Source: Bdellovibrionales bacterium
Lineage (GTDB): Bacteria; Bdellovibrionota; Bdellovibrionia; Bdellovibrionales; UBA1609
Direction: 5' to 3'
Length of the DNA: 64,000 nucleotides
Assembly (NCBI GenBank): GCA_965261545.1
Contig: CBDHDF010000010.1
Coordinates: 960,001 to 1,024,000, forward strand
A model generated the notes under the pieces. That model had not been told where the DNA came from, made no database searches, and worked only from the letters and a program-made list of their open reading frames with translations. Below, piece by piece: positions 42,343-52,058 of the stretch (its first letter is position 1; each line of letters opens with the position of its first letter). A program made the position numbers and the translations under genes.

Positions 42343-43587
42343 ATGAGCACGGAAGCTCAAACACTTAAAACGATCAAAAAATGTTTCAAGAAAGTTATTC
42401 CTGAAAAGGACTCTCGGGCAACCATTCCACCTCTTGAGTTTATTGTGGCTCTTGTCTTGTCATTCCAGGGAGACTCTAAGACATATTCAATAGAGGGGAT
42501 TAGGAGGTTTATGATAAGTCATTTAGGGTTAAGAATTGAAAGACACAGCTTCTGGGAAAGACTCTCTAGAAAAAGATTAAAAAAGCTTCTGAGTAAACTG
42601 GTTGAAATGCTCATGATAAAGCTATCTCATGGAGCTTTTCATGGAAGCAAAGCCATATTATTACAACTGGGAGTCTCAGACGTTCTTCTTGTTGACTCAA
42701 GCACAATAAGCCTTTGGGATGGAGCATCTGAGAATTTTCCAGGGACAAGAACAAACGCAGGAATTAAATGGCACGCTTGTTTCAGTTTATTCAGTGGTAT
42801 AATGACTTGGTTCGAATTAACTCCGTCTTCCACTAACGATAGGAAGTGCTTTCCTGATATAAAGGAACTCGTTGGAAAATTAGTCATCTTTGATTTGGGA
42901 TATTGGGACTATGGCTTATTGTCATCTATTCATGAAGCTAAAGGATTTTTCTTGTCTAGAGTGAAGTCAAATGCCTCTATTCTTATTGATGCTGTTGTTG
43001 AAGGTTTGCCAGATTACTATGTTGGAAAAGAGTTCTCTGATATTAAACTCAAGAAAAAAAACGATGTTGTTGAATTTATAGGCAGTGTCTTGTCCAATGG
43101 TAAATGGGTAAGTTTGAGAATTGTAGGCTTCTGGAATTCCTCCGAAAAACGCTATCATTGGTATTGCACGAATTTAGATGTGGCAGCGGAGTCCATATAT
43201 CCAATTTATCGTTTACGTTGGCAATGTGAACTTATTTTCAAATCTTGTAAGAATTCTTTGAATGCAAATCAGATCACCTCAAACGATCAAAATATCATAG
43301 AGAGTCTTCTTCTTGCTTCATTAGCGGCTCACCTCACATCAAGTGTTGTTTTGAGGATAGGAAGAACTAAACTCAATAAGGAACAAAATGACTCCACATC
43401 GTTTCAAAGAGTTGCTAAGGTTACCGTCTTATTAGCCTCTGATTTTATCAAATATCTCCTAAGCTCATCTCAAAAGTATTTAAATATTTTGATAGAGAAG
43501 ATCAAGATATTCTCCCATGAAATTTATGACACAAACTACCGACGGCGAAAAACATCAATGAATATGGCTAAAAAGGTCTTGCTATGA
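42343..43587 (+). CDS. IS4-family transposase (414 aa)
   Basis: VDSST, FDLGY, YRLRWQCELIFK (YREK motif). Confidence 0.93.
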   Translation: MSTEAQTLKTIKKCFKKVIPEKDSRATIPPLEFIVALVLSFQGDSKTYSIEGIRRFMISHLGLRIERHSFWERLSRKRLKKLLSKLVEMLMIKLSHGAFHGSKAILLQLGVSDVLLVDSSTISLWDGASENFPGTRTNAGIKWHACFSLFSGIMTWFELTPSSTNDRKCFPDIKELVGKLVIFDLGYWDYGLLSSIHEAKGFFLSRVKSNASILIDAVVEGLPDYYVGKEFSDIKLKKKNDVVEFIGSVLSNGKWVSLRIVGFWNSSEKRYHWYCTNLDVAAESIYPIYRLRWQCELIFKSCKNSLNANQITSNDQNIIESLLLASLAAHLTSSVVLRIGRTKLNKEQNDSTSFQRVAKVTVLLASDFIKYLLSSSQKYLNILIEKIKIFSHEIYDTNYRRRKTSMNMAKKVLL

Positions 43588-45874
43588 AAGAATAAAAAAC
43601 CACGAACACCTATGAGAAGCTTCCTGATTTTATTTATGGCTGAAGACACGTCAATATTTTCTATTTTCATACTTACCTTATGAAAATATTAACATGCCTT
43701 TTTTTCATTAAAAAAAATGCACTAGGATTCGTTCTAAGAAGCAAAAGGAATGAGAAGTGCCCCCCGCGACCTATGTTTCACAATCTTTCAATACTATGGC
43801 TCTCAGAGAGTTTAAGGCATATGCAGGAACATATTCGATAAAGAACAAATGAAAGAGGTCGTTTGCTTCAAAAACTTGTCAAGAATTTTTATACTTTTTT
43901 TAAAAAAATTGTTCGAATTAATGCGGCACCCCCTGAATAGTTACTATGAATCTCCGGGGTAGTTTGGACGCACGAATCCACTATCCGTTCTTCGAATTTT
44001 TTCAAATGTCCGAGTTTTTAAATCATCCTACATTACATGAAATCATACTTTTTTAACGCTCTAATCCACCTTGGTGCATTTTTTTTCACCATGAGCTTTT
44101 CATAGTCAATTCCAGGGTCTTTGTAGGGGGTGTCATTACTTATGACTGAATAAACAACTCCCATCATTTTGTGACCAACGGCAATCACTGATCTCTTGTG
44201 CCCACGCCTTATAACAAGTGATTGGTATTTGCCTTTGAATTGTGAATTCGTCTTAATAGCACTATTGGCCATCTCACATACCAACGATTTCACATATGTG
44301 TTCGCTTTCCTCGTTCGTGAAGACTTTTTTTTCCTGCGCTCTCATTATTGGATGGGCAAATCCCCATCCAGGAGCAAAAATTTCCTTTATTTTTAAAAGA
44401 CTTCACATTGCCTCCTATTTCTGCAATCAAAAGCGCTGCACTTAATTCGTCAATTCCAGGTATAGTCTGGAGTAGATGCCACTGCCTTTCATAGGGTTTC
44501 ATACGAATGAAAAGTTCTTCTTCAATTTGAGAGCATTCTTTTTTCAAAAAATCTATTCGATCAAGAATGCGTTGAAGAACAAAACGATTTTCTTCCGTCA
44601 TCTTTCCCGACAGGGCGTAAGAAAATTCTTCGGTCTTTTGACGTAAAGACCCTCTGGCAAGAGACATCAATTTAGAAACTGATCTCTCTCCATTAGCTAG
44701 TTTCTGTCCAGAAAGGCCCATTTTTTGTTCTCTGACACTCCCCATTGAGCCTCCCAATGCCTCAATGGGGGAGTGAGAGTTGGAGATTTGCCACACAAAC
44801 TCTACAGATTAAGGGGAAAAAGGTCTTTAAGCGACTTGCGCCCTAGTTTTTTCGATTTGAAGACGCACCCCTACCTTTGGAAGATTTTAGCACCTTCGAC
44901 CTGGTCCATTGCTGTTATTCCTAATGGATAAATTTAGGTGACAGTTGATAATTCATGTCTTGCCAAGACAACAAAATTATAGGCACAAACGGCATTCTTT
45001 ACATACCTCTTAAAACCATCATGCCCTTTCCAGTAAGCAACTCTCATACCAAAACATCTCTTAAGGAATGAAATAACAGCCTCTATTCCGGCTCTCCAAT
45101 TGAGAAGATTTTTAAAGACCCAAGCACTTTTAACCATCTTTAATATTTTCATTCCTTTTTTTTCTGGGAAGCAAACATCTTTAGCCCCCATCTCTTTGGC
45201 CTCTTCAAGATTTTCTTTTGAAGCAAACCCACCATCTGCACTTACTTTTACAGGGCAAGCCCCATAGGTTTGTGTCACTGAATTCATAACTTTTAAAAAC
45301 ATATCAGAGTCTGCGGGGTTGCCATCAGGGATCTGACAATCTAAAATCATGTTGCTTTGCCCTGAGGTCAAAAAGATTTTATGCCCAAACTCGACTTCTC
45401 TTTGCCCCTTTACAATAATGTCTGTATGCGGTTCAAAGATGGATAGGACCTTTTTTTCAGAAGATACTTTTTTCCCCTCAATAACTCTTTTTTGAGTTTG
45501 AAAGATGATTTTTTCCAGGTAGAAGGCAACATTTTCTAACTGTTTTAGACTCTTTTTCAAAGCATTCATCTTCACACATTTTTGTTCTTTTTTTATCTTT
45601 CTGATGGTATCAGGTAATCCTTTGTTCAATTTGGTAGCGATTTTTAAAAGCTCCTTATAGCAAGGTAGTCTTTCCGCATCATTTTTGGAATTATTAATTT
45701 TGTAAAGCAAGGTTTTTGCTCTCTTAAGATCTTCTCTTGAAATAAGTCGCCAAAAATCTTTCATGACATTTTTACGAACTTTTTTAAATTCTCTTTCTGT
45801 AACTCTTATGCAGTCATATAAAAGCGATGCATCCGTTGGATGATGAATATTTGATCACTCATGTTGATACCCCC

Positions 45875-47920
45875 TTAGTAACGTAGCTTTTTAATTGATC
45901 CGGACTTAAGTTTTTTAAAGTCAGATATGGTTTTTTTCTTATCTGGAAAGAGATAAGCCTTTGTTTTCTCGTGTTTTTTGACAATGATCCTCCCTTGTTT
46001 AATATGGTGATAAATCCAATGAACTTTAACATCAATAAGTGCTGCAATTTGAGATGTTGTGAGGCTTCCCTCGACTTTGGTCGGAAAAGAGTGCTTTCGA
46101 TTCCGATAGATTTTATTGTTTAGTCTATAGGACTTCACAGTATTTCTGAGAAAAGTGGTATCCATTGGTGATCTGAATCCTTTTTGGGTCAATAGTTTGG
46201 CAATATCTTCATCAGACACCCCAAGCTTGACCTGATGCGCAATTATTTTCTTTATCGTTTCAGAAGATGACAGTTCATCAAAAGATCCAACTTTGATTGG
46301 AATGCTAGCTTCTGTTGTATCTCCTCCAATCCAAACAATTCTCAGTGCAACCATATCTCTTTTCTTTCTGTGAATGACAACCTTTTCAACCAATGTTCTA
46401 AGAATTTTCTTTTTCATGTCTTTGGTCAATATCTTATCCTCCCATAGCGAAGGTAGTTTTTGATTCAAATCTGAAAATTCTCTTTTCATTTTTTGAGAGA
46501 TCACAGTTGGAATACGCTGTTCATTCTTAACCCTCTCTAGGTGATCTTCGGCTTTTTTAAGTATTACTAAAGCCTCTTCCCATTGTGTTTCTAATTCATC
46601 TGCAACAAGTCTATTCTCAGGGTCTACTTTGCGATACCTCTTTTCTACCAGTTGAGCTTCATACCTTAAACGCTGAATTTGCTGAATGTGTGATTTGTAA
46701 ACCTCTTGGTCAATTTTTGACTTATTTTCTAAAGCCTTGGCATACAAGTCTAGCTCGACAGGGGAAAGAACCTTAAAAAAAGCGTTTACTACATAATCAT
46801 CGATTGGATCTGTAGGAATGAATTGGCAAGTAGGTTCCCGATGTTGTTGGCGTAGATAGTTGCATAAGTATCGAGTTGCTGTTTTATACTGCACTGACAT
46901 TTTGTGGCCACATTCTCCACAATAGACTATCCCATGTAAGAGGGCCTTACCAGGGCGAGGTATGCCTCTTGTTTTATTACGAGTATATTCAGTGTAGTTG
47001 TCTTTTAGAATTTCTTGTATCTTTAAGAATGTATTCCAATCGATATATTTAGGATATTTATCTTTCACAACAATTTTCCATTCATTAAGTGGAAGCTTTG
47101 TACGCTTAAGTTTTCCAGCTAAGTCTTTTCTACGGTATTCAGCTTTGCCATATACAAAAGTTCCGCTATAAGCTGGATTCTTCAAAATAGAAAGTATGGC
47201 TGCCTTGGATGTTTTTTTCCAATGAATACTTTTTACAAAATCAACTCTTGGAAGTAAGAGGTTGTTATCGTTAAAAAATCGCGACACCTTACCGGCTGAT
47301 TTCAGTTTTAAGAATATAGTAAATACTAAATTTATGCGATCTTGTAAATCTTTATTTGGATCTTTTAGCACTTTACCTTGTTCTGTTCGAATAAAACCAA
47401 CTGGTAATTTAAGAGCTAAATCTCCTCGCTTGGCTTTGTTGAGAAGACCTGCTGTTAATCTATTGCGTATCGTAAATAATTCCATTTCTGAGAGTTGACC
47501 TTTAAACCCGAGTAACATTCTTCCATTAACATTAGAAGGGTTATAAATAGACTCTCTATCAGCAATGAGGCAATTCTTAAAAGCACACAGATCAAGTAAT
47601 TGGTACCAGTCCGTACAGTTTCTAGATAGACGAGTGACATCGTACGATAGAATAATACCAATTTTTTCCAAGGTCACTTCTGCAAGGATATTCTTGAAGC
47701 CTTCTCTAAACTGTATACTACTTCCTGTGATCCCCAAATCATCATCGACAATTTCAATACTATCTTCTTGCCAACCTAATTCAGTAGCTCTTTGCCTGAG
47801 TGAGTATTGAAGGTCGAGACTTTCTTTGTTTTTGATGGCTTGCTGAGGGGTCGACTGTCTGATGTATATTATGGCTTTTCTCTTTAAGTGAATAGGTGTA
47901 ATCAATTCCGATGTTTTCAT
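45875..47920 (-). CDS. Large serine recombinase (resolvase + recombinase + Zn ribbon + C-terminal HTH-like)
   Basis: YIRQST, DVTRLSRN, ILKNPAYSG, LLHGIVYCGECG; ATG at 47920 follows GAGGAG. Confidence 0.93.
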   Translation of the reverse strand: MKTSELITPIHLKRKAIIYIRQSTPQQAIKNKESLDLQYSLRQRATELGWQEDSIEIVDDDLGITGSSIQFREGFKNILAEVTLEKIGIILSYDVTRLSRNCTDWYQLLDLCAFKNCLIADRESIYNPSNVNGRMLLGFKGQLSEMELFTIRNRLTAGLLNKAKRGDLALKLPVGFIRTEQGKVLKDPNKDLQDRINLVFTIFLKLKSAGKVSRFFNDNNLLLPRVDFVKSIHWKKTSKAAILSILKNPAYSGTFVYGKAEYRRKDLAGKLKRTKLPLNEWKIVVKDKYPKYIDWNTFLKIQEILKDNYTEYTRNKTRGIPRPGKALLHGIVYCGECGHKMSVQYKTATRYLCNYLRQQHREPTCQFIPTDPIDDYVVNAFFKVLSPVELDLYAKALENKSKIDQEVYKSHIQQIQRLRYEAQLVEKRYRKVDPENRLVADELETQWEEALVILKKAEDHLERVKNEQRIPTVISQKMKREFSDLNQKLPSLWEDKILTKDMKKKILRTLVEKVVIHRKKRDMVALRIVWIGGDTTEASIPIKVGSFDELSSSETIKKIIAHQVKLGVSDEDIAKLLTQKGFRSPMDTTFLRNTVKSYRLNNKIYRNRKHSFPTKVEGSLTTSQIAALIDVKVHWIYHHIKQGRIIVKKHEKTKAYLFPDKKKTISDFKKLKSGSIKKLRY

Positions 47921-48017
47921 ATATAATCTCCTCAATGGCTAAAGTTAAGTCTTTGATGACTTGCTTTTGAATTTCTTTTGGCAGTCTTGGCCAGACATCT
48001 TTTGGTGTAATTGACAT
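47781..48017 (-). CDS. Small accessory ORF overlapping the LSR1 start
   Basis: 78 aa; overlaps both the upstream ORF and the LSR start. Confidence 0.5.
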   Translation of the reverse strand: MSITPKDVWPRLPKEIQKQVIKDLTLAIEEIIYENIGIDYTYSLKEKSHNIHQTVDPSASHQKQRKSRPSILTQAKSY

Positions 48018-48307
48018 AGTTGCTCTTCCAGTTGTTGAGTCAGTGAAATTAGCTCCTGAATTGCAACTATACCAAGTTTGCTTGGGGCCTGCCTATCGTA
48101 GAGATTGGGGTTCAGATTGGTAGAAGCCAATGGTATGCGTAGCGTCATGTGGTTCTTGTATTGAACAAAAGCAAAAGTAGATTTTTTCTGATTTTTAGGT
48201 ATGGAAATCACCTTGAATGACTTCCTATAAAGGGGATGGGAGGGGTCCGTGACCCTTAGCTCTCTAAAACCTCTGTCGTTGACGGGGGTATTAAGTAATG
48301 GACTCGT
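47945..48307 (-). CDS. Body of a junction-split accessory gene (VTDPxHPLY motif, DUF5372-like)
   Basis: Frame is open to the element end with no ATG/GTG/TTG before the motif; in-frame ATG and RBS lie at the other end (45862). Confidence 0.7.
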   Translation of the reverse strand, partial: TSPLLNTPVNDRGFRELRVTDPSHPLYRKSFKVISIPKNQKKSTFAFVQYKNHMTLRIPLASTNLNPNLYDRQAPSKLGIVAIQELISLTQQLEEQLCQLHQKMSGQDCQKKFKSKSSKT

Positions 48308-50147
48308 TTGATTTCGTCACTGTACTGTCCAATCTCATTTTCTTACACGGCTCAATCTTTTGATCTCTTGCATCTGAAACTAAAGAGGCGCTAATAATTC
48401 CCCAAGTTTCTTCACTTATTTGAACAATCAAGTCCTGTAAGGTGGAGTGAGCGTAATTTTCTTCCAATTCAAGGCCCAGAAAAGCTCTGGTGGATACTGA
48501 ATCGACAAGATTAAAGGCTAACGCACGATAGGAAAGACCTCTTATGGATTTAAGAATAGCCACCTTGAGAACTTGCTCCGATGTCATACCAATATCACCA
48601 GAATCTTTCTTTTCTTTAACAAGGTCTTCATGAACCATATGGGCAAACTCTGGATGGCGATCAATGATGTTATTAATTTGCTGCAATTCTGTACTGAGTT
48701 GGTGGTTAGGATATTGGGAAAAGAGTCCCAACTGTGTCTTCTTCAAATGGCGCATAGTCCCCCCTTTGGTGAAAGTTTCTCTTTAATTTTTATATTAACA
48801 TACGTTTTTTTGAGGGAAAAAAGTGAGCAAGGATGTCTTTTAAGAAGAAAAAAATCAGAGAGGTTCTCGGAGAACATGGATAAGAATTCTACCTCATAGA
48901 GAGGTTCCCACGCCTCCTAAAACCTACATAAAAAATAAATGAAGAATAAAATATCAAAAATTATTTCTCTGAAAAAACACGTCAAGTATTTTTTGAAGTT
49001 GATGCGCAACGTAATGTTATTTCCCTGAAGGAGGTTTGAAATCACCACGGTGGAAACACAGGTTGATCCAACTCTTCCTCTCATATCAAGTAACCAGTTG
49101 ATAGCCACATAAGTCACTGAAAGGGAGGGGCTGTGAAAGGTTCGTCAAGAGAGGGGGGGGAACTTATTTTATTTTTCCGTTTTATGTAAGTAACTGAATT
49201 TACACGGATTATGTTTGATGGACTCCATTTTAAAGCATAAAATCTAAAGGGAAGGCATGTAAATACTTAAAACTACTTAACTTTCTTCCCTGGACAGGAA
49301 CTAGCTATGGCACGAATCATGGCCATACCAGATACGCAGTCAGCTTTAGACATTGCATAGGTTAAACGAATGCCTGAATATTCAAGAACCTTATACATAC
49401 GATTTTGTTCCGAAGATATTTGGCGGATCGTTTTTGTACGATAACGAGCCAAAAGTCTAATAGAACGAATCTCACGTGGAGGAATGAAGCTAGCTCTTAG
49501 AAGACCACAAGCACCAAGCTCTGCAATCCACTGGCTATCCAACACGTCAGTTTTTTTACCAGTAATATTTTTGACATGAAAGGCATTGATAACATCTACT
49601 TCATAACCTTTTTCTGTCAAATCATCGTATAAAGAATTCCAATAAATCCCTGTGCTCTCAAAAAGAACTCTCTCAACCTTATGTGGCTTCATCCAAGAGC
49701 GCATTCTAGGAAAATTTTTTGGAAAATTCTTGAACTCTTTTGTGAAAAACTTCTTCTTACCGTCTTCCACTTTGACAATCGTACACATCAACATATGTTG
49801 ATGAACATCTATTCCACAAACAGAACTATAAATAATATCCACATGACTCCTCCTTTCTGTTAGAAAAAAAGAAGGTGATAAAACTAGAGCCTTGGGATTT
49901 TGCCATAAATTCTAAAGCGAAAATAGGTCAACTTACTATGAATCTCCGGGGTAGTTTGGACGCACGAATCCACTATCCGTTCTTCGAATTTTTTCAAATG
50001 TCCGAGTTTTTAAATCATCCTACATTACATGAAATCATACTTTTTTAACGCTCTAATCCACCTTGGTGCATTTTTTTTCACCATGAGCTTTTCATAGTCA
50101 ATTCCAGGGTCTTTGTAGGGGGTGTCATTACTTATGACTGTAAAATT

Positions 50148-52058
50148 GGTTACGGTAGGAATGCGTGTTGCCACGCACCCCCCGCACAGATCCGGACGTG
50201 CTCGTTAAAGCATCCGGCTCCTACTTCAGGTGGTACCGCATAGCGAACCTATCTGTTGGCCACGGGTGGCGTATGGATATACGAGGCCAGAATAGACGAA
50301 TCATTCTATCCAACCTCTTCCACGAGAATCTCCGTCCACGCTGTGAGCGTCGTCGGATGGCTTTCATCCAAGCACTCCTGATTGCGCAAATAAATTTTCG
50401 TAGGTACACCGTACTTCCTGGAACCGCAAAATAATTGAGCCAGCCTTTGATGACCAAACCCAACCACTTTGCACATTCCGCTAGGTCCCTCGTGTAGACT
50501 CGTTTTCTCAGACTCAGCTTCAGGTGCTGTAAGGTCCGGCAGACTCTCTTGGATATGGGTTTACGCCCTATCCTAAAGCCTCCTTTCCTCGTGCGCACAC
50601 AAAAGTGAGTGAATCCTAAGAAATCAAAAGTCTCGGAGTGACCAAGACCTCGTCGGCGGCAATTTGCATTTGCAAATCGACCGAACTCTATGAGGCGAGT
50701 TTTCCCCGGATGTATTTCTAGAGAAAACTCCTTAAGCCTGCGCTTCAGATCATTGAGGAAGCGTTCAGCTTCCCCCTTGTATTGAAAGCCTACGACAAAG
50801 TCATCGGCGTAGCGAACAAATATCATGTCCCCTGTGGCATGGTCCTTGCGCCATTTCTGCATCCATAAATCCAACACATAATGTAAATATATGTTGGCGA
50901 AGATAGGGGAAATATTTGAACCTTGAACGGTCCCTCTCCCTGTGTCTTCTAAGACGCCTTGAGATAGCACTCCGCACTTGAGCCACTTTTCAAAGAGACG
51001 AATGAGTCTCTCATCTCCGATGAGGTGTTTTAGAAAGCGAATTAGAGTCTTTCTATCCACGCTATCGAAGTAGGATTTTATATCCGCATCCAATATGTAG
51101 CTGATCTTCCTACGCTCTATTCCGTAAGCCAGAGCATCCAACGCATTATGCGCTCCACGCCCTGGACGGAATCCGTAGCTATAACCGAGGAAATGTTCCT
51201 CGTAGATGGGAGAGAGGATGCTGTCTACAACGGCCTTCTGGACAATCTTGTCCTCCAAGGCCAGGACACCCAAGGGTCTTGTGCCCCCGTCTGACTTGGG
51301 TATTTCTACCCGCAAGACAGGTTGCCCTTTGTAAGCACCCGTGTGGACCCGACGATGTAAATCGAACAGGTTTTGCACGAGGTTCTCGCCATACTCCTTC
51401 CATGTTAAATGGTCCACTCCCGCACTGGCTCCCCTATTCAAATAGAGGTAAGCCAAGTGGAGGGCTTCCACAGATACATGGTGAAGCAAGCAAGTGAGCT
51501 TACCATCCTTTCTCTTTGCTGCTATACGGACTCGCTCCGTCGCCTGTGACACCTTTTCCCAACTCTGTGTTCGGCAGATGCTTTGACGGATTGAGTTCCC
51601 TTCAGTTCCACCCCTTCGCTCCAAGGACTCCGCTGGGCTTGTAGGCCCTTTGTTCGTCCTCTTCATCGCTACTATGAGTGGATCCGATTTCTTTATTTCG
51701 TTCATGGGTTACGGTTACCTCCTTTCCCATGTCGCCCGTCGCACATGACGGGGTTAAATAAAGACCTCCCGAGGTCCCGAGATAAGATTCATGTATGTGC
51801 CAGTTTCTACGACGCCGTGGAGTCACCCACCAACTCACCATAGCGCTGGTGGGTATGTTGCGTTCGGCTACCATGACAGCCTCCGCACTCCAGAGTTCGG
51901 CATTTTCGACGCTCAATTATTTGGCCCACACACACCCCTACCGATACATCGCTTCGGCCTCACGGCCGACAGCGCACGGCTTGGGGAGAGAAGTGGTCGG
52001 TTGACCTTCCTCTCGGGGGACTCTAACCCCCTATCTTATCTCAGTTCGCCCGGCGAAC
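50148..52058 (-). mobile_element. Group II intron, copy 1, intact (class E-like)
   Basis: 5' GTTCGCCGG; D5 GAGCCGGATGC...GTCCGGATC; D6 ending CCTACCGTAAC(C), 3' end +/-1 nt; EBS1 TATGGT in hairpin 51826-51853 pairs with 5' exon GCCATG. Confidence 0.9.
50221..51705 (-). CDS. ltrA: Group II intron RT/maturase, no endonuclease domain
   Basis: AGVD, IPKSDG.TRPLG, YGFRPGR, QGSNISP, RYADD, FDFLGFTH, GWLNYF. Confidence 0.95.
   Translation of the reverse strand: MNEIKKSDPLIVAMKRTNKGPTSPAESLERRGGTEGNSIRQSICRTQSWEKVSQATERVRIAAKRKDGKLTCLLHHVSVEALHLAYLYLNRGASAGVDHLTWKEYGENLVQNLFDLHRRVHTGAYKGQPVLRVEIPKSDGGTRPLGVLALEDKIVQKAVVDSILSPIYEEHFLGYSYGFRPGRGAHNALDALAYGIERRKISYILDADIKSYFDSVDRKTLIRFLKHLIGDERLIRLFEKWLKCGVLSQGVLEDTGRGTVQGSNISPIFANIYLHYVLDLWMQKWRKDHATGDMIFVRYADDFVVGFQYKGEAERFLNDLKRRLKEFSLEIHPGKTRLIEFGRFANANCRRRGLGHSETFDFLGFTHFCVRTRKGGFRIGRKPISKRVCRTLQHLKLSLRKRVYTRDLAECAKWLGLVIKGWLNYFAVPGSTVYLRKFICAIRSAWMKAIRRRSQRGRRFSWKRLDRMIRLFWPRISIRHPWPTDRFAMRYHLK

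Follow-up and report, generated by a model that had tools for sequence, protein, structure and literature searches.

A small serine-recombinase transposon whose accessory gene is parted from its translation start by integration and is predicted to be rebuilt when the element's ends are joined

How could a protein be made from a gene whose open reading frame (ORF) runs, without any start codon, to the very edge of the mobile element that carries it? This question is raised by a small element in the genome of a Bdellovibrionales bacterium (assembly GCA_965261545.1, contig CBDHDF010000010.1, positions 960,001 to 1,024,000 of the forward strand; this whole stretch of 64,000 nt is hereafter called the window). 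The element is 2,457 bp long, lies on the minus strand within the transposase gene of an insertion sequence (IS), and contains a 120-codon ORF resembling the Pfam family DUF5372, followed by the gene of a 681-aa large serine recombinase (LSR). A previous reading of these letters alone (the sequence-only reading) had proposed that the small gene becomes complete only when the two ends of the element are joined. We found that integration separates the DUF5372-like gene from its translation start. As the best explanation of the whole, we think it probable that a circle, or joined ends of another kind, would rebuild the small gene and, less surely, that its product would be a cofactor of the LSR in the excised state.

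The limits of the element were determined from sequencing contigs and from the host genome. We compared the Logan contigs of four runs of one sample (X1-X4) over positions 45700-48460 of the window. They contain an empty-site joint leading from 45849 to 48307, and the four runs contain the occupied form as well. Because the joint skips exactly 2,457 bases, with six bases that fit on either side, the ends of the element can be placed as listed in Table 1, with the cut falling within a shared hexamer. The copies of this hexamer, ATCAAA, at both ends of the element are in identical codon phase, and the crossover lies inside it, between two A's, at the symmetry centre of the attachment arms. The host genome (4.3 Mb in 11 contigs) holds 39 exact 50-mers of the empty site and nine exact 40-mers of each occupied junction, so that the conserved IS transposase site is occupied in 9 out of 48 cases. 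A search of this genome returned seven flank-to-flank matches of ~100% identity and one that is nearly full, plus fragments; an empty copy of the target gene encodes an intact 454-aa transposase. The precise empty sites may reflect either excision or sites that were never occupied. The element is, therefore, a two-gene site-specific transposon, precisely integrated at a conserved IS transposase site.

Two further observations were made on these copies. The depth of the element contig, as a share of element plus empty-site depth, was ~33%, 29%, 22% and 24% in runs X1 to X4, next to 9 out of 48 (19%) in the assembly; contig depth is not copy number, and the differences between runs, which are unexplained, are not evidence of movement. 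Several copies in the host genome are broken (G000:C11:326875-327970 with C11:329986-331396, loci L010 and L009; C11:318634-318701, L013; C7:583349-584343, L011), the element itself having been hit or damaged by other insertions. In one of them ~2 kb of other DNA interrupts the LSR gene, and the same 13 bases of the query (1151-1163) find a match to either side of it; others are truncated.

At the right end of the element, read on the minus strand, the LSR stop codon (TAA, 45877-45875) is followed by GGGGG (45874-45870), seven bases, an ATG (45862-45860) and the codons AGT GAT CAA, after which the flank begins. There are 12 nt between the LSR stop and the ATG, and the G-rich box stands before the ATG at the normal distance of a Shine-Dalgarno (SD) sequence. 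In the integrated state this ATG opens a peptide of 18 residues that ends in the flank. At the opposite end, no stop interrupts the frame of ORF 47945-48211 as far back as 48307, where it reads TSPLLNTPVNDRGFRELRVTDPSHPLYRKSFK, and its translation from the element boundary starts TSPLLNTPVNDRGFRELRVTDPSHPLY. There is no ATG, GTG or TTG in its first 33 codons, the first candidate being a GTG at 48211 (codon 34), and an in-frame TGA (48319-48317) lies in the flank just beyond this end. Since the SD and the ATG sit at the opposite end of the element, the integrated small gene has neither a ribosome-binding site (RBS) nor a start codon. Joining the ends places four codons from the right end and 120 from the left in one frame of 124 codons, with the crossover between codons 4 and 5; the frames match only across the joint. 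The sequence-only reading had described each of these features, namely the SD and ATG behind the LSR stop, the start-less frame with a TGA just outside, the 124-aa protein formed by joining at TTTGAT and the short flank peptide of the integrated ATG, and they were confirmed in the minus-strand sequence. A scan of positions 45600-48800 for promoters and terminators gave eight promoter-like sites, compared with 8.6 expected from shuffled sequences, and no promoter was assigned.

If this arrangement were a peculiarity of one copy, its frame across the junction would be expected to vary among relatives. We scanned species-representative genomes and retrieved 411 stretches encoding LSR relatives, the best 80 of which (49-63% identity) were analysed together with the window copy, giving 81 loci. 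Their hosts include cyanobacteria, Chloroflexota, Planctomycetota, Proteobacteria and Wolbachia. The ends were located with a 15-position arm template in which the ATG triplet and the five bases that follow it were left free; the template was built from arms already seen and is hence not blind. The small ORF was present in 80 out of 81 loci and was not found in L063. A left arm was located in 78 loci, and in all of them it is in frame with the ORF, whose variable-length linker is also open and in frame with the arm (78 out of 78). A right arm was located in 69 loci, each with an ATG at positions -12 to -10 (69 out of 69). Both arms were located in 67 loci, comprising 48 distinct arm pairs, and the ATG and three sense codons were in frame in every one. 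The loci with an unlocated right arm include some whose contig ends inside the element, such as L042, L048, L053, L060, L096 and L118, and in one locus (L074) the right arm scored only 12 in the template scan, with the ATG still visible by eye. The elements measure between 2,443 and 3,113 bp, the layout withstanding ~650 bp of extra cargo. Recurring in each related locus with both ends located, the layout exceeds what chance would produce; the constant frame across the junction that the sequence-only reading had proposed to look for in homologues was borne out, and no random frame was seen. The split-start design is common to a large, apparently undescribed element family: a full-text literature search, with most subscription journals outside its coverage, returned no description of this family, nor any of a start codon provided from across an attachment (att) site. 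As a separate observation, five longer elements (3,023-3,113 bp; L102, L105, L106, L115 and L058) carry ~650-720 bp extra between the DUF5372-like and LSR genes and keep their split-start ends.

Judged from its relatives, the small ORF encodes a real protein family, conserved from the first codons. A first, less exhaustive homology search gave a single match (P0001), a variant with a different N-terminus. An exhaustive profile-free search retrieved 231 cluster representatives at E≤1e-3, 37 of them at E≤1e-10, many of which align from query residues 1-5. The small protein of the window had no Pfam match at E≤0.1; DUF5372 (PF17342) was matched by 26 out of 51 aligned relatives (best E 9.3e-07), and DUF5372 is likewise the family of the nearest Atlas clusters (score 0.93). 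This is a Pfam family of unknown function, and a full-text literature search for the term 'DUF5372' returned no paper. The best-conserved stretch, E-I-E-V-T-D-P-x-H-P-L-F-G-R, lies upstream of the sole internal start candidate in the window. An AlphaFold2 model of the small protein (mean predicted local distance difference test, pLDDT, of 81.5) folds into a four-stranded SH3/KOW-like barrel with a long helix. Foldseek against the Protein Data Bank gave no match at E≤0.001, the best (0.023) being PsaE, NdhS and the Spt5 KOW domain, and a wide VIA-align search gave a best Z of 5.2 (NdhS; root-mean-square deviation 1.9, 47 aligned), tied with NusG/Spt5 KOW and SH3 domains.

The recombinase has the domains of an LSR. 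It matches Resolvase (PF00239, 6.6e-20, residues 16-167), Recombinase (PF07508, 5e-18) and Zn_ribbon_recom (PF13408, 1.7e-09), the Recombinase domain being followed by the zinc ribbon, and Y19, R21, Q22 and S23 do not vary among 26 aligned relatives, in keeping with the R-x-S motif of the catalytic domain. The inverted arms around a central dinucleotide and the precise regeneration of the empty site likewise agree with this class. Among 8,000 scored candidates, 5,516 LSR relatives were found at E≤1e-20, and the recombinase was absent at E≤1e-50 from all 40 related host genomes searched. The nine occupied and 39 empty identical sites, with copies ~100% identical, suggest that this LSR is capable of excision and integration. 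It also has a long C-terminal extension with a weak match to HTH_17 at residues ~620-650 (window 45875-46020, minus strand; E 0.0051, below the Pfam cut-off). The HTH_17 family includes excisionase-type DNA-binding domains, and the extension may be a built-in accessory DNA-binding module.

Under the reading we favour, the LSR would excise the element and join its ends, in a circle or in any head-to-tail joint, thereby rebuilding both the attachment site and a complete 124-codon gene. The rebuilt gene would extend from 12 nt past the LSR stop to 24 nt short of the LSR start; among relatives, the gap between the end of the small gene and the LSR start is -4 to 60 nt in 50 out of 54 distinct cases. 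The circle would be a closed two-gene loop in which transcription once round would express the small protein and the LSR together, and the topology of the element would decide whether the small protein exists. With less certainty, the small protein may bind the LSR as a cofactor of the excised state, licensing or biasing integration or blocking re-excision, and each state might make the set of proteins needed for the next step. A predicted complex of the LSR with the small protein scored 0.60 (best control 0.00) and was graded as weak support; the mark for this was reached by 116 out of 157 solved complexes and by 2 out of 215 mismatched pairs, and just 18 of those 157 solved complexes scored 0.60 or lower, as did both of the mismatched pairs that reached it. 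The prediction runs agree in at least 90% of contacts, with a partner pLDDT of at least 64.

Several points weigh against this reading. The related loci share ancestry, so that 67 out of 67 does not amount to 67 independent trials. The circle, the junction transcript and the protein are inferred rather than directly evidenced. The modelled fold of the small protein is a generic small barrel that implies no function, and the support that the predicted complex lends to LSR binding is weak. The LSR gene has its own strong RBS in nearly all relatives (a GGAGG box before the start), so that it could be expressed independently of the small gene; on the same observation we rejected the idea that the LSR is translated solely through coupling to that gene. 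Other points come from the attachment site, an imperfect palindrome of ~64 bp centred on A|A. Its arms mirror each other for 32 nt or more, TTTTTGA..GGAGTATCAAG being compared with the left end in reverse complement (41 and 46 distinct arms, respectively); they were found by sequence reading and template scan, and are not among the 25 longest inverted pairs of a repeat search. The G-rich SD of one arm is the mirror of the L-N-T-P codons on the other, and the SD and the first 11 codons are predicted to be recombinase-binding arms, conserved at least partly at the level of DNA. Since the SD belongs to such an arm, its conservation alone is no proof of translation, although the SD claimed by the sequence-only reading is present. 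In rough estimates from 443 non-independent pairs, the ratio of nonsynonymous to synonymous differences (pN/pS) of the small ORF is 0.98 in codons 1-11, 0.64 in the linker and 0.53 in the core, and pS is 0.285 in codons 1-11 versus ~0.61 in the rest of the ORF, that is, synonymous change is suppressed there. Lastly, an in-frame GTG or TTG precedes the conserved motif in 15 out of 61 distinct left ends, mostly as the V codon just before T-D-P, where a start is possible, and some in-frame start occurs in the flank of 14 out of 57 loci.

The arm symmetry, the constrained synonymous sites and these scattered starts would be accounted for if the ATG and the G-rich box were kept only as a DNA-binding site of the recombinase, and the protein were made from the integrated copy through the GTG or TTG before T-D-P, a non-canonical start or read-in from the flank. 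The ATG itself argues against this. In 41 distinct P arms it has 2.0 bits at each of its three positions, whereas the mirror positions in 46 distinct P' arms have 0.60, 0.24 and 0.75 bits. An invariant ATG facing a nearly free mirror position is not accounted for by the symmetry of the arms; on this sequence evidence, the asymmetry is explained by a start codon and not by a symmetric protein-DNA contact. Neither do the integrated copies offer a consistent start for the small gene in the sequences compared. None of the 61 distinct left ends has an in-frame ATG before the conserved D, and 46 have no in-frame ATG, GTG or TTG there; the only candidate in the window, at codon 34, is downstream of the best-conserved motif. 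A conserved internal start upstream of VTDPxHP, which would have spoken against the sequence-only reading, was looked for and not found, no locus having an ATG there. Flanks differ between copies and, in 43 out of 57 loci, lack any in-frame start; the six copies of a Wolbachia element lie in six different flanks, three of which have a stop 2-3 codons outside the boundary. An open linker of variable length, always in frame with the arm, is also at odds with an ATG kept for DNA binding alone. We consider production from the integrated copy improbable.

The joined form itself was searched for in several datasets. None of the contigs of the four runs joins the two ends of the element, but contigs drop rare variants and are therefore uninformative about circles. 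Joined-end words of 24-50 nt taken from the window gave no match in the 4.3-Mb host assembly, and a looser, degenerate joined-end motif gave none in five genomes holding related loci in one to many copies (L067, L084, L082, L105 and L065). In metagenome contigs, a stricter degenerate motif, which demanded an exact ATCAAG among other things and would miss many relatives, matched one stretch, a chance match in an unrelated long ORF. Among 150 listed representatives, the gene calls of three (P0166, P0208 and P0214) have an N-terminus of the joined type (M-x-x-[RQ], then T or left-end sequence), as judged from the calls and not from the contig DNA; P0166 is on a contig of 2,600 nt, a size near that of the 2,567-bp element of its nearest relative. 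These calls, on contigs of 637-3,610 nt whose structure was not seen, could also fit a joined form that is a head-to-tail tandem or another chromosomal joint, with stable expression of the gene, and not a free circle; any head-to-tail joint would rebuild the same gene. The assembled genomes examined contain no joined ends, so the joined form does not exist there as a stable chromosomal tandem, and we regard this alternative as very unlikely.

If the split start is real, in which direction would the small protein act? It might be a classical excision directionality factor, made by a rare first circle and acting in trans to set off bursts of excision. In favour of this, the protein is small, encoded by the element and weakly predicted to bind the LSR, and the presence of several copies, nine here and six in a Wolbachia genome, makes action in trans possible. 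However, a recombination directionality factor has to be produced from the integrated element, and both the copy in the window and the 46 distinct relatives without a candidate start lack the start or RBS for this. The integrated copy could not make a classical excision factor, which makes this role a poor fit, and a single-copy element could never begin the cycle. In addition, the excision factors known for serine integrases inhibit integration, so that circles would be left stranded, and the Pfam, Foldseek and VIA-align searches showed no likeness to a known factor in sequence or fold. There is, in our view, little chance that the protein is such a factor. Since the integrated element could not make an excision factor, we favour a partner, specific to the excised state, that would promote integration or prevent re-excision. 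A more far-reaching version of this idea is possible but doubtful as a whole: topology would be the directionality switch, the small protein an 'inverse' factor of the excised state and the LSR alone the driver of rare excision; the att site would serve at once as recombination site, RBS, start codon and first coding segment; and the elements would form a widespread class of hyperparasitic transposons homing into group II intron reverse transcriptases and IS transposases.

Parts of this arrangement have precedents. Tn4451 and Tn4453 of clostridia are reportedly small transposons moved by an LSR, TnpX, through a circular intermediate whose joint is said to form the promoter of the recombinase gene. 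The present element resembles them as a small LSR-moved transposon in which a circle, inferred here, would alter the expression of an element gene. In contrast to those transposons, its joint supplies an RBS and a start codon to an accessory gene, and the LSR gene is whole and has its own RBS. With only 12 nt between the ATG and the crossover, transcription from a promoter that spans the joint would begin downstream of the ATG and could not include it. In the integration-dependent immunity of mycobacteriophages, attP lies in the repressor gene; integration cuts off the 3' end of this gene, and it is the shortened protein that is active. There too the product of a gene spanning attP differs between integrated and free states; here integration takes away the 5' start, and no product is expected from the integrated state. 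The circles of IS911, IS2 and IS30 carry junction promoters. A junction-generated promoter is also mentioned for IS110/IS1111 circles (PMC11187229). The likeness to IS circles is that joined ends create an expression signal lacking in the integrated copy; the difference is that theirs is transcriptional and serves a DDE or DEDD transposase, whereas here it would be translational, serve an accessory gene and be formed by a site-specific recombinase that regenerates the empty site exactly. The nearest parallel in logic is offered by SSV-type ('suicidal') tyrosine integrases, known from archaeal viruses and plasmids, in which the att site lies within the integrase's own coding gene, split on integration, a built-in control of directionality; a review describes them as found exclusively in archaea (PMC8371274). 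Like these split-gene modules, the element has its att site inside a coding gene that is split by integration and whole only in the free form. Unlike them, the gene that is split is the DUF5372-like accessory gene and not a tyrosine integrase itself: the bacterial serine enzyme of 681 aa stays intact where theirs is cut mid-gene, and the cut falls four codons into the accessory gene, parting it from its translation start.

The coordinates of the features discussed are given in Table 1. Other mobile elements appear to be the homing targets of the family, although the targets differ: the copy in the window is in an IS transposase, and those of the Wolbachia lineage are in unrelated genes. Relatives in eight loci (L119, L121, L075, L047, L088, L052, L101 and L097) lie inside genes of group II intron reverse transcriptases, in antisense orientation. 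The flank ORFs tested all match RVT_1 (11 out of 11), five of them also matching the maturase domain GIIM, and the split falls at profile position ~78-80 of RVT_1, within the conserved motif D-x-D-I-x-x-[FY]-F | D. Two of these loci have a second DUF5372-matching ORF of a different type (L052:5261-5746, plus strand, E 3.3e-04; L097:5325-5684, plus strand, E 8.4e-08), on the same strand and 190-250 nt past the right end of the element, and similar motifs occur in L061, L062 and L088; in L052 and L097 a second serine-recombinase element is possibly nested in the same reverse-transcriptase gene. In the window, positions 50221-51705 (minus strand) hold an apparently intact ORF of 494 aa for a group II intron-type reverse transcriptase/maturase, whose motif LDADIKSYFDS is the site targeted by relatives elsewhere and is unoccupied here. 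The neighbourhood is rich in other mobile DNA (42343-43587, plus strand; 44033-44796 and 49273-49842, minus strand; 43889-44056; 49884-50048), including a transposase-like ORF of 414 aa and ORFs of 86, 168 and 189 aa that resemble pieces of another transposase. Two short ORFs ~6 kb apart share an identical stretch of 30 residues.

Table 1. Features of the element and its insertion site (coordinates refer to the window)
Feature	Coordinates	Strand	Basis
Mobile element	45851..48307	-	Sequencing contigs with the empty-site joint; empty and occupied sites in one genome; arm centres by template scan
Right-junction hexamer TTTGAT (minus strand ATCAAA)	45850..45855	.	Six bases fit either side of the joint
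Left-junction hexamer TTTGAT (minus strand ATCAAA)	48307..48312	.	Six bases fit either side of the joint
P arm (predicted), last 32 nt of the element; overlaps LSR stop, SD and ATG	45851..45882	-	Mirrors the left arm
P' arm (predicted), first 32 nt of the element; codes the first 11 residues of the small protein, including conserved L-N-T-P	48276..48307	-	Mirrors the P arm; pS 0.285
Right-end module: SD GGGGG (45874-45870), ATG (45862-45860), three sense codons AGT GAT CAA	45851..45874	-	Sequence; ATG offset the same in 69/69 related right ends
DUF5372-like gene body, 120 codons and stop	47945..48307	-	Open frame; relatives align from the first residues; Pfam DUF5372 in relatives
LSR gene, 681 aa, ATG at 47920, own GAGGAG RBS	45875..47920	-	Pfam domains; start and RBS read from the sequence
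N-terminal part of the interrupted IS transposase (DUF772; target gene)	48308..48755	-	Pfam DUF772 6.9e-07; intact in the empty copy
C-terminal part of the interrupted IS transposase (DDE_Tnp_1)	44934..45850	-	Pfam DDE_Tnp_1 9.4e-13; intact in the empty copy

If the reading favoured here is true, it would describe a compact way for a mobile element to sense, with no regulator, whether it is integrated or free, recombination itself assembling and dismantling a translation start. It would extend the junction promoters of circles and the att sites within genes to translation and to bacterial serine recombinases, enzymes that are used as genome-engineering tools and whose directionality is actively studied. 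The uncharacterised DUF5372 family would gain a concrete, testable role, and a recombinase partner that is self-contained and gated by topology could serve as a synthetic switch. The analysis also draws attention to a very large family of ~2.5-kb elements that land inside the genes of other mobile elements.

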